Shown here: positions 3,467 through 30,109 of the stretch, one piece after another | Position numbering within the stretch: the first letter of the stretch is position 1 | How the letters are laid out: every line of letters starts with the position of its first letter | Position numbers and translations under genes: made by a program | The notes under the pieces: model-generated | Seen by the model: the letters and a program-made list of their open reading frames with translations, nothing else | Databases searched by the model: none | Told to the model about the DNA's origin: nothing | From: Escherichia coli | GTDB taxonomy: Bacteria; Pseudomonadota; Gammaproteobacteria; Enterobacterales; Enterobacteriaceae | DNA length: 64,000 nucleotides | Direction: 5' to 3' (one strand) | Assembly: GCF_003334785.1 (NCBI RefSeq) | Contig: NZ_QOWV01000015.1

Positions 3467-3964
3467 TTAGTTTTGTGTGTCGAGGGTAGAGAGTTCTTTG
3501 TCGATAAAATACAGACCTTCGCCGCTTTTGCCTGCCAGGCTTAATTTATCAATAATCGATTTGAACAGTTTCTCTTCTTCATGCTGCTCAGAAACATACC
3601 ATTGCAGGAAATTAAATGTTGGGTAGTCCTGATTGGTCATTGCTGCATGAGCCAGTTCGTTAATTTTCTGGGTGATTAATTGTTCGTGTTTATAGGTTTC
3701 CTGGAATAATTCATCAAGTGAGGAATATTCAGCAAACGGAGATTCAACGGTATTAATACGCGGTAAATTGCCGGTATCAGTCAGATAATCAAACAGACGC
3801 TGCATATGCGTCATCTCTTCCTGGGCGTGACGGCGCAGGAACGCGGCAGCACCTTCGAAGGTATGATAGCTGCACCAGGCGCTCATTTGCTGATAAAGCA
3901 GTGAAGAGTACAGTTCCAGGTTCATCTGCTCATTAAGTTTTTCAATCATTTCTGGTTTCAGCAT
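3467..3964 (-). CDS. ftnA: Ferritin FtnA (iron storage)
   Basis: Translation [15 protein letters not shown]... (165 aa from the internal ATG of the 170-aa ORF) recognised as FtnA. Confidence 0.95.
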
Positions 3965-26861: not shown

Positions 26862-28932
26862 TCTGGCCGCGATGCTGCGCCTGCCCGCAAACCTGAAATC
26901 GACACAATGGCAGATCCTTGCCGGACCGATTTTGATCCTGTTGATCTTGTCGATGATGGTGCTGCCACTGCCCGCATTCATACTCGACCTGTTGTTTACC
27001 TTCAATATTGCCTTGTCGATCATGGTGTTGCTGGTGGCGATGTTTACCCAGCGCACGCTTGAGTTTGCTGCGTTTCCGACCATTTTGTTGTTTACCACGC
27101 TGTTGCGTCTGGCACTTAACGTGGCTTCAACCCGTATCATTTTAATGGAAGGGCATACCGGCGCAGCGGCGGCAGGGAAGGTGGTTGAAGCGTTCGGTCA
27201 CTTCCTCGTTGGTGGCAATTTCGCTATCGGTATCGTGGTGTTTGTCATTCTCGTGATCATCAACTTTATGGTCATTACCAAAGGTGCCGGGCGTATCGCA
27301 GAAGTGGGTGCGCGCTTTGTTCTCGATGGTATGCCGGGTAAGCAGATGGCGATTGACGCCGACCTTAACGCCGGATTGATTGGTGAAGATGAGGCGAAAA
27401 AACGCCGCTCCGAAGTCACTCAGGAAGCCGATTTTTACGGCTCAATGGACGGGGCAAGTAAGTTTGTTCGCGGCGATGCCATCGCCGGGATCCTCATCAT
27501 GGTCATTAACGTTGTCGGCGGGTTGCTGGTCGGCGTGCTGCAACATGGCATGAGCATGGGACACGCGGCGGAAAGTTATACGCTATTGACCATTGGCGAC
27601 GGTCTGGTGGCACAAATTCCGGCGCTGGTGATTTCTACCGCCGCGGGGGTCATCGTTACGCGTGTCAGCACCGATCAGGATGTTGGCGAGCAGATGGTGA
27701 ATCAGCTTTTCAGTAACCCAAGCGTTATGTTGTTAAGCGCCGCCGTGCTCGGTTTGCTCGGCCTGGTGCCTGGAATGCCGAACCTGGTATTTTTGCTGTT
27801 CACGGCGGGATTGCTCGGGCTGGCCTGGTGGATACGCGGGCGCGAACAAAAAGCGCCTGCCGAACCCAAACCGGTAAAAATGGCAGAAAATAATGCTGTA
27901 GTCGAAGCAACGTGGAATGATGTGCAGCTGGAAGATTCCCTGGGAATGGAAGTAGGCTATCGGCTGATCCCGATGGTCGATTTCCAGCAGGATGGTGAGT
28001 TGTTGGGCCGTATACGCAGTATCCGCAAGAAATTTGCCCAGGAGATGGGATTTCTGCCGCCAGTGGTGCACATTCGCGACAATATGGATCTGCAACCTGC
28101 CCGCTATCGCATTTTGATGAAAGGCGTGGAGATAGGCAGTGGTGATGCTTATCCGGGGCGCTGGCTGGCGATTAACCCTGGAACCGCTGCCGGGACGTTA
28201 CCTGGTGAGGCGACCATCGATCCGGCATTTGGCCTGAATGCTATCTGGATTGAAAGTGCGCTAAAAGAACAGGCGCAGATTCAGGGGTACACCGTGGTTG
28301 AGGCCAGCACGGTGGTGGCAACGCATCTTAACCACCTCATTAGCCAGCATGCCGCAGAGCTGTTTGGTCGTCAGGAGGCGCAACAGCTGTTGGATCGCGT
28401 CGCCCAGGAGATGCCAAAGCTGACGGAAGATCTCGTTCCTGGCGTCGTCACGCTCACCACACTGCATAAAGTGCTGCAAAATCTCCTCGATGAAAAAGTA
28501 CCGATTCGCGATATGCGCACCATTCTCGAAACGCTGGCGGAACATGCGCCCATCCAAAGCGATCCACATGAATTAACCGCCGTCGTGCGCGTGGCGTTGG
28601 GACGGGCGATTACCCAGCAGTGGTTTCCTGGCAAAGATGAAGTCCATGTTATTGGCCTCGATACACCGCTGGAACGTTTGTTACTACAGGCGCTGCAGGG
28701 CGGGGGAGGACTGGAGCCAGGGCTGGCGGATCGTTTACTGGCGCAAACTCAGGAAGCGCTATCCCGTCAGGAGATGCTGGGTGCGCCGCCAGTATTGTTG
28801 GTGAACCACGCGCTGCGACCATTATTGTCTCGCTTCCTGCGCCGCAGCTTGCCGCAGTTAGTGGTCCTGTCGAATCTGGAACTGTCTGATAACCGACATA
28901 TCCGCATGACGGCGATAATTGGCGGCAAATAA
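26854..28932 (+). CDS. flhA: Flagellar export apparatus protein FlhA
   Basis: MSNLAAMLRLPANLKSTQWQILAGPIL... 692 aa, overlapping the flhB stop. Confidence 0.96.
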   Translation: MSNLAAMLRLPANLKSTQWQILAGPILILLILSMMVLPLPAFILDLLFTFNIALSIMVLLVAMFTQRTLEFAAFPTILLFTTLLRLALNVASTRIILMEGHTGAAAAGKVVEAFGHFLVGGNFAIGIVVFVILVIINFMVITKGAGRIAEVGARFVLDGMPGKQMAIDADLNAGLIGEDEAKKRRSEVTQEADFYGSMDGASKFVRGDAIAGILIMVINVVGGLLVGVLQHGMSMGHAAESYTLLTIGDGLVAQIPALVISTAAGVIVTRVSTDQDVGEQMVNQLFSNPSVMLLSAAVLGLLGLVPGMPNLVFLLFTAGLLGLAWWIRGREQKAPAEPKPVKMAENNAVVEATWNDVQLEDSLGMEVGYRLIPMVDFQQDGELLGRIRSIRKKFAQEMGFLPPVVHIRDNMDLQPARYRILMKGVEIGSGDAYPGRWLAINPGTAAGTLPGEATIDPAFGLNAIWIESALKEQAQIQGYTVVEASTVVATHLNHLISQHAAELFGRQEAQQLLDRVAQEMPKLTEDLVPGVVTLTTLHKVLQNLLDEKVPIRDMRTILETLAEHAPIQSDPHELTAVVRVALGRAITQQWFPGKDEVHVIGLDTPLERLLLQALQGGGGLEPGLADRLLAQTQEALSRQEMLGAPPVLLVNHALRPLLSRFLRRSLPQLVVLSNLELSDNRHIRMTAIIGGK

Positions 28933-29324
28933 TGAGAACCTTATTAGCAATATTATTGTTTCCGCTGCTGGTGCAAGCCGCCGGGGAGGGGATGTGGCAG
29001 GCAAGTAGTGTAGGAATTACGCTAAATCATCGCGGTGAGTCGATGTCGTCTGCGCCTCTTTCTACGCGACAACCTGCTTCAGGATTGATGACGCTGGTAG
29101 CGTGGCGTTATCAGCTTATCGGCCCGACACCTTCAGGACTGCGGGTTCGCTTGTGTTCGCAATCTCGTTGTGTCGAATTAGAGGGGCAGAGCGGAACCAC
29201 CGTGGCCTTTTCCGGTATAGCGGCAGCAGAACCGTTGCGATTTATCTGGGAAGTGCCTGGCGGTGGGCGGTTAATTCCGTCGCTGAAAGTACAACGTAAT
29301 GAAGTGATTGTGAATTATCGCTGA
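28932..29324 (+). CDS. flhE: Flagellar protein FlhE
   Basis: 130-aa secreted ORF overlapping the flhA stop. Confidence 0.94.
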   Translation: MRTLLAILLFPLLVQAAGEGMWQASSVGITLNHRGESMSSAPLSTRQPASGLMTLVAWRYQLIGPTPSGLRVRLCSQSRCVELEGQSGTTVAFSGIAAAEPLRFIWEVPGGGRLIPSLKVQRNEVIVNYR

Positions 29325-29382
29325 AGGACAAAAAAAATTACGCGCTCGCGAGTATGTTTAATAACTCAGTGAAAAAGGCTGG

Positions 29383-29429
29383 ATGTTTTGTTGCAATCAT
29401 TTATCAGGAATAGATTGCAACAAAACATG
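29383..29429. terminator. Perfect 16-bp inverted repeat (probable bidirectional terminator) between flhE and yecT
   Basis: atgttttgttgcaatc ... gattgcaacaaaacat with a 15-nt loop between convergent genes. Confidence 0.55.
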
Positions 29430-29444
29430 CCAAAAATATGTGAA

Positions 29445-29954
29445 TTATCCTCTTGTCAAAGGGCTTGGATAAAAATCTTCAGAGTTACGGTATAGCTGCA
29501 ACTGGCGAGTTCGCGTATTGGTCTGTATGATCATACATGAGAGCCATTCTGATTCAGAATAAGGGTCACTTAAATCCTGAACGTCCTCATTTGAAAGGAT
29601 TAATTCACATTCTTTGTCCCTAAAATCCAGCCAGGCTCGCTGTGATTTTTTAAGCAAGTTAAGTTGTTCGGTATCAGGTTTTTTTACACCTGTGCGTGGC
29701 ACTTGTTCTATATAACGATAAGCTTCACCATAGGCTTTATTTAATTGCGCATCGACGAGATTGTATTCTTGTCGCAGGCATGATTTGATCACGTTAACGT
29801 CAGTATCATCATCTGAATTTTTTTGCCAACAATCTTTGATGGCTGAAATGTCATGGTCGTTTACTATAACCGTATCTTCTGCGTAAGCCTGGCAAGAGAT
29901 AATGCCTAATGTTAATACAAGAAATTTAAACACTGCGGTATTCCTTAAATTCAA
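29445..29954 (-). CDS. yecT: DUF1311-family (LprI-like) secreted protein YecT
   Basis: 169-aa ORF with N-terminal signal peptide, recognised as YecT; exact start not verified. Confidence 0.8.
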   Translation of the reverse strand: MNLRNTAVFKFLVLTLGIISCQAYAEDTVIVNDHDISAIKDCWQKNSDDDTDVNVIKSCLRQEYNLVDAQLNKAYGEAYRYIEQVPRTGVKKPDTEQLNLLKKSQRAWLDFRDKECELILSNEDVQDLSDPYSESEWLSCMIIQTNTRTRQLQLYRNSEDFYPSPLTRG

Positions 29955-30109
29955 CCGTTATCGTTTCCCTGGGGCCGGATATTACGCTTCTGGCCTCTTA
30001 TCCAACAGTGAGAAAACAATGGCATGTCCATTTTCAGAATACATTTAGATGGCAATAAAAAAGCCTGATCAGGTAACCCTGATCAGGCTTTACTCTCACG
30101 AAAAATCGA

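Follow-up and report, generated by a model that had tools for sequence, protein, structure and literature searches.

We propose that the palindrome between the convergent genes flhE and yecT of Escherichia coli is the 3′-end RNA hairpin of yecT, most likely its Rho-independent terminator, a reading to which we assign a probability of about 0.6. The palindrome forms a stable hairpin, is followed by a U-tract on the yecT-sense strand, lies just past the yecT stop codon, is conserved and co-occurs with yecT, and from these features we infer both termination and 3′-end formation. The hairpin would most likely be a routine signal at the end of a gene rather than an element of a new kind.

The window, by which we mean the whole 64,000-nucleotide stretch that was analysed, holds a perfect 16-bp inverted repeat whose arms, ATGTTTTGTTGCAATC (29383-29398) and GATTGCAACAAAACAT (29413-29428), are 100% complementary. 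This agrees with the original prediction made from the letters alone, except that the loop, ATTTATCAGGAATA (29399-29412), is 14 nt long and not 15 nt, and that the repeat ends at 29428 rather than at 29429. The convergent arrangement is likewise borne out by RefSeq annotation, taken from a strain identical over the flhE-yecT stretch, in which flhE, the last gene of flhBAE, occupies 28932-29324 on the plus strand and yecT, a gene of the LprI/DUF1311 family, occupies 29445-29933 on the minus strand with its TAA stop codon at 29447-29445, leaving a spacer of 120 nt. The repeat exceeds what chance would give. It is the longest perfect inverted repeat in the window among those with a loop of 3-30 nt, an arm of at least 14 bp appears in none of 30 dinucleotide shuffles of the window, and there is no other copy of the palindrome in the window within 2 mismatches. 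The stem is AU-rich, with GC at 5 of its 16 pairs (31% GC), and both the hairpin and yecT are held in a block of low GC content (~38-42%, versus 52-57% in the flanks).

Folding of the RNA, which had been suggested as a check, yields a strong structure on both strands, with a minimum free energy of -26.3 kcal/mol (z = -6.0) for plus-strand RNA and -25.3 kcal/mol (z = -6.9) for minus-strand RNA. Across all alleles and both outgroup species described below the folds range from -21 to -26 kcal/mol, those of the minus strand from -21 to -25 kcal/mol, and the plus-strand fold equals or betters the minus-strand fold in most alleles. Plus-strand RNA gains extra pairing inside the loop, giving a 5-nt loop and ~20 pairs, and in minus-strand RNA the 14-nt loop is either open or closed by 4 weak pairs.

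The sequences that flank the stem are not equivalent on the two strands. The absence of a flanking T-run on either side, as first reported, does not hold, since UUUUU follows a GCC clamp on the minus strand. Read in that direction, the order is GGC (29431-29429), stem, loop, stem, CCA (29382-29380), GCC (29379-29377) and UUUUUC (29376-29371). GGC, the 5′ half of a 3-bp GC clamp, is invariant in all 10 sequences compared and pairs with its 3′ half, GCC at 29377-29379, in the minimum free energy folds of most alleles, and CCA forms a 3-nt bulge that varies between CCA, CGA, GAA and GGA. Because GGC and GCC pair across this bulge, no base separates the stem from the U-run, and the U5 tract (29376-29372 on the minus strand, A5 on the plus strand) abuts the stem base on the 3′ side of yecT-sense RNA. 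The tract is kept in E. coli and in Escherichia sp. E1V33 and is degraded to GUUUA in E. whittamii. A TransTermHP-style tail score taken after GCC on the minus strand is 3.84, within the top 0.25% of window positions and the top 0.66% within the local low-GC block, whereas the plus strand scores 0.14, having A5 on both sides (29372-29376 and 29432-29436) and no 3′ U-run. The stem starts 17 nt after the yecT stop codon on the minus strand and 58 nt after the flhE stop codon on the plus strand, and neither folding nor a terminator scan finds a canonical terminator between the flhE stop codon and the hairpin. Since A-runs stand on both plus-strand sides, this is not the classic bidirectional design of A-tract, hairpin and U-tract. 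The suggestion of a bidirectional terminator therefore survives in part, with a terminator-type hairpin on the yecT strand and, on the plus strand, A-runs and a negligible tail; terminator-like anatomy is supported, as far as sequence features go, for the yecT strand only.

In the mechanism that we envisage, RNA polymerase would pass the yecT stop codon on the minus strand and would next transcribe GGC, the 14-16-bp AU-rich stem, its 14-nt loop, the return arm, the 3-nt bulge, GCC and then UUUUUC. The hairpin would zip down to the GC clamp beside a weak rU:dA hybrid, and the transcript would be released a few bases into or past the U-run, at a position predicted to be ~29365-29372. The hairpin left on the released RNA may then shield yecT mRNA from 3′-5′ exonucleases. 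As the DNA is palindromic, flhBAE RNA reading through on the plus strand makes the same stem without a U-tail, and there the hairpin would at most slow the polymerase or block exonuclease trimming, with Rho ending transcription further downstream.

Several aspects of this hairpin match intrinsic terminators and several do not. On the minus strand a stable hairpin occurs soon after the yecT stop codon with a U-tract abutting the stem base; the GC-rich stem with a loop of 3-8 nt that is characteristic of such terminators is lacking, the 3-bp clamp beyond the bulge being the only GC-rich part. A GC-rich stem with a short loop is typical of intrinsic terminators rather than obligatory. The AU-rich stem, the 14-nt loop and the 3-nt bulge before the clamp are all atypical of an efficient terminator, and the U-run is just 5 nt long and degraded in E. 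whittamii. A simple scan for consensus terminators does not flag the site, and its sixth place among 418 in a crude window-wide ranking of hairpins with a T-tail, dominated as that ranking is by long imperfect folds in coding regions, is not evidence. The hairpin thus resembles the intrinsic terminators of E. coli in its placement just past a stop codon, its basal GC clamp, its U-run on the yecT-sense strand and a possible role in 3′-end protection, and departs from them in its long AU-rich stem, 14-nt loop, bulge, run of only five U and missing upstream A-tract. With bidirectional terminators, such as the argS terminator at 30060-30091, a perfect 14-bp palindrome with the classic A-run and T-run flanks, it shares a single palindrome between convergent genes, but here the flanks are not mirror-symmetric and the U-tail is on the minus strand only. 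The 14-codon open reading frame yecV (30024-30068, plus strand) ends inside the left arm of the argS terminator palindrome. Like REP/BIME elements, the hairpin is extragenic and palindromic, lies in a region of convergent 3′ ends and could stabilise mRNA; unlike them, it occurs once per genome and does not resemble the REP consensus. No Rfam family matches it above threshold, a search of Rfam 15 at a permissive threshold returning generic hairpin matches only (best 23.6 bits against a threshold of 50, E ~0.5).

The allele present in the window, with its perfect 16 bp, is a minority form, the 91 nt around the hairpin being identical in 179 genomes. An O157:H7-type allele reads AATC...GCTT, a PE15/EC974-type allele reads AATT...GCTT and has a perfect 14-bp stem, and the K-12-type allele, shared without change across 90 nt by 2,449 genomes, adds T29387C. 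A29414 in the right arm is found in the window allele only, every other allele and both outgroups having C. The 14-bp state is that of E. whittamii and Escherichia sp. E1V33 alike, which indicates that C29398 and A29414 are derived: the former extends the stem by a C-G pair lying past a mismatch, and the latter repairs that mismatch, completing the perfect 16 bp. What is conserved, judging from these alignments, is the 14-bp stem and not the 16-bp form. The first 14 nt of the left arm make up this core and are invariant except for T29387C in K-12-type alleles.

To quantify conservation, variable columns were counted free of gaps between the two stop codons in 10 sequences that include the two outgroup species. 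The core stem varies at 1 of 28 columns, the stem top plus loop at 3 of 18 (the loop itself at 1 of 14), the GC clamp at 0 of 6 and the remaining spacer at 20 of 48, so that both the core stem (Fisher p = 3.5e-4) and the whole hairpin (4 of 46; Fisher p = 3e-4) differ from the remaining spacer. This signal stems from the two outgroup species; when only E. coli is counted, hairpin and flanks are about equally polymorphic (3 of 46 versus 5 of 73 variable columns). Conservation across E. coli genomes, which had been proposed as a check, is found together with conservation in two outgroups, and concerns the 14-bp core. Divergence climbs sharply between the hairpin and flhE (29325-29382), and E. 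whittamii has lost ~13 nt downstream of the U-run; the rise on that side fits a functional yecT unit that ends near the U-run. Substitutions within the stem do not point to one strand. T29387C, the only core-stem substitution, produces a C·A mismatch in plus-strand RNA and a G·U pair in minus-strand RNA, costing the plus-strand stem ~3.7 kcal/mol and the minus strand nothing, and the U·G wobble at the top of the stem pairs in plus-strand RNA (5 of 6 haplotypes) but fails to do so in minus-strand RNA. As these two wobbles are opposed, the pattern of substitution favours neither strand as the one that matters. The stem shows no compensatory double change, and 13 of its 16 pairs never vary.

Among 5,426 complete E. 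coli genomes a match to the hairpin is found in 3,614-3,616, complete in ~3,560, at a median of one place per genome (3,614 genomes), making it a single-copy element; the remaining genomes lack yecT. Its presence follows a polymorphism of yecT itself, with ~1,810 of the 5,426 genomes lacking the region (window 29347-30100); the hairpin is missing where yecT is deleted, and genomes without the hairpin keep flhBAE. In strain HH97 a ~481-bp deletion (window 29347-29827) has taken the hairpin and most of yecT and left a 5′ remnant of the gene. The stretch with the yecT promoter, with yecV and with the hairpin of the argS terminator has been swapped (L004 2543-2690) for unrelated sequence that is very C-rich on the flhE-sense strand and that may possibly serve as a Rho-loading site. 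Strain CAVP819 has an IS1A inserted in the hairpin loop directly after ATTTATCAGG (L010 1540-1570, ~window 29408), and yecT is deleted beyond the IS1A. Apart from E. coli, a genome scan recovered the element only from E. whittamii and Escherichia sp. E1V33; protein matches at 83-84% identity, considered as distant orthologues, were frameshifted E. coli yecT genes with K-12-type hairpins and were set aside. The element has no phage match, and its four matches in the plasmid collection, which include records of 0.4-4.8 Mb, look like chromosomal sequence. A dispersed repeat or MITE was rejected on these grounds, together with the single copy per genome.

Transcript-end data bear on the proposal at low coverage. 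The hairpin corresponds to positions 1962477-1962522 of MG1655, and the curated Term-seq data contain no 3′ end on either strand from 1962300 to 1962699, at a locus whose coverage is very low (Adams et al. 2021, PMC7815308); yecT and flhE are also absent from the TERMITe and SMRT-Cappable-seq supplements. In K-12, yecT is repressed by H-NS and activated by BglJ-RcsB (PMC3950696), and poor expression under standard conditions is expected from this repression. As the locus is poorly expressed, the missing 3′ ends are weak evidence. The original prediction had named, as the outcome that would speak against it, a lack of transcript 3′ ends at the repeat together with a palindrome that is not conserved; the palindrome is conserved, and K-12 Term-seq lists no 3′ end there, at this very low coverage. 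On the flhE-sense strand of K-12 a bicyclomycin-sensitive Rho region peaks at MG1655 1962401, with a Rho score of 4.16 (p = 1.8e-5) at a coverage of ~30 reads per 800 nt (Adams et al. 2021, supplementary file 2, PMC7815308), which maps to ~29504 on the plus strand of the window, ~76 nt past the hairpin.

This peak is one reason to consider that the palindrome serves both strands, acting as the intrinsic terminator of yecT and, in addition, as an exonuclease-blocking stem-loop that sets a stable 3′ end for a Rho-terminated flhBAE mRNA, a proposal that we consider possible but doubtful. Rho-dependent transcripts of E. coli end at stable stem-loops without U-tracts, and such ends arise by trimming with PNPase and RNase II (Dar and Sorek 2018, PMC6061677). 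The flhE-sense hairpin resembles this class (PMC6061677) in being a stem-loop without a U-tract with a bicyclomycin-sensitive region shortly downstream in K-12. In most alleles the fold of its plus-strand RNA, with a 5-nt loop and ~20 pairs, is at least as strong as that of the minus-strand RNA, the U·G pair at the top of the stem is kept in plus-strand RNA in 5 of 6 haplotypes, and no canonical terminator intervenes after the flhE stop codon. Against this, the hairpin has no reported 3′ end on the plus strand, the sequence downstream on the plus strand contains about as much C as G and so has no rut-like C-over-G bias, and the Rho signal, which is weak and of low resolution, rests on ~30 reads per 800-nt window. 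That signal rises mainly downstream, so its source could be antisense transcription initiated within yecT and not flhE read-through. In the majority K-12 allele the plus-strand stem is ~3.7 kcal/mol weaker, with no change on the minus strand, and one third of E. coli genomes keep flhBAE without the hairpin, an absence that also sets the element apart from the stem-loops of Dar and Sorek. An extension of this scheme, in which the dual mechanism is joined to a stepwise lengthening of the stem from the ancestral 14 bp in one E. coli lineage, by T29398C (O157 type) and then C29414A, is in our view unlikely; were it true, it would imply that selection is still acting to insulate the flagellar export operon from its neighbour.

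Three further alternatives were weighed. A palindrome without function, persisting through low divergence among the sampled Escherichia or by hitch-hiking beside the end of the yecT coding sequence, would account for the missing compensatory changes, for a hairpin as polymorphic as its flanks within E. coli, for the lack of any reported transcript 3′ end and for the dispensability of the element in ~1,800 genomes. We nonetheless judge it improbable, since a perfect repeat of 14-16 bp is far beyond chance, inclusion of the two outgroup species shows the hairpin to be significantly more conserved than the spacer beside it (p = 3e-4), and the invariant GC clamp and the U-run are placed exactly as a terminator requires. 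A site acting at the level of DNA, whether a palindrome bound by a regulator such as FlhD4C2, a sigma-54 promoter or a site of replication or recombination, could be argued for from the adjoining flagellar operon, from a loop as conserved as noted above and from a sigma-54 core spacing of TGG-N8-TTGCA in the window allele (TGGATGTTTTGTTGCA, 29380-29395, plus strand). The arms are 14 bp apart, though, in an element that is single-copy in the genome, and neither the FlhD4C2 box nor the Ter consensus matches at the palindrome within 3 mismatches. The sigma-54 core pattern occurs at its chance rate (7 found versus 6.7 expected), its GG is absent from K-12-type alleles and both outgroups, and a K-12 sigma-54 ChIP table, where searched by the word yecT, gives just a site inside argS (PMC4591121). 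A DNA site of any of these kinds is thus very improbable, and the protein-binding palindrome, first suggested beside a bidirectional terminator and an RNA-processing hairpin, finds no support. The sigma-54 pattern of TGGATGTTTTGTTGCA is created by G29381, which occurs only in the derived window and O157-type alleles, and a promoter there would fire antisense into yecT. Barely credible, lastly, is a small protein gene, the 29-codon open reading frame MFCCNHLSGIDCNKTCQKYVNYPLVKGLG at 29383-29472 on the plus strand. Its ATG coincides with the start of the palindrome and has AGG 4-5 nt upstream, and no E. coli allele or outgroup interrupts the frame, but the changes among haplotypes are 6 nonsynonymous versus 3 synonymous, an approximately neutral ratio, and the ATG would be sequestered in the stem. 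The frame has no NCBIfam match, is not annotated by RefSeq although the nearby 14-codon yecV is, and is absent from the supplements of a study of intergenic small genes in O157. It was rejected for want of coding-type conservation. The predicted peptide is cysteine-rich, and the frame overlaps the 3′ end of yecT.

Other features of the neighbourhood were recorded alongside the hairpin. Just past the flhE stop codon lies a perfect 8-bp palindrome, CTCGCGAG (29346-29353), preceded by a run of A7-8 that is variable in length; the HH97-type deletion begins at its edge, and in E. whittamii the palindrome is substituted and ~13 nt immediately upstream of it are missing. A perfect 11-nt direct repeat, TGTGAATTATC, brackets the hairpin at 29309-29319 and 29439-29449, its copies covering the last flhE codons and the yecT stop codon, and bracketing of this sort arises in 13 of 2,000 shuffles. 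The repeat was considered as a target-site duplication or insertion scar, which was rejected because the ancestral flhE end, VIVNYR-stop, follows the first copy of TGTGAATTATC and not the second; this end is the same in Salmonella FlhE (PDB 4QXL). Homologues of YecT at ~61% identity (L014, L017 2501-2986) are found inside T6SS clusters, directly after genes for effectors with CHAP or pesticin domains and before PAAR genes, a context not comparable with that in E. coli. From this placement, E. coli yecT looks like an orphan immunity-type gene of the LprI/DUF1311 family. Its similarity to the UmoC flagellar regulator family of NCBIfam is below threshold (36 bits against a cutoff of 120).

The assignment of the palindrome as the probable intrinsic terminator of yecT has mainly annotation value and leaves the current understanding of termination unchanged. 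If confirmed, it would give yecT a defined transcript end and would explain how flhBAE and its silenced neighbour avoid reading into each other. It would also provide a small example of a palindrome with a different termination anatomy on each strand.
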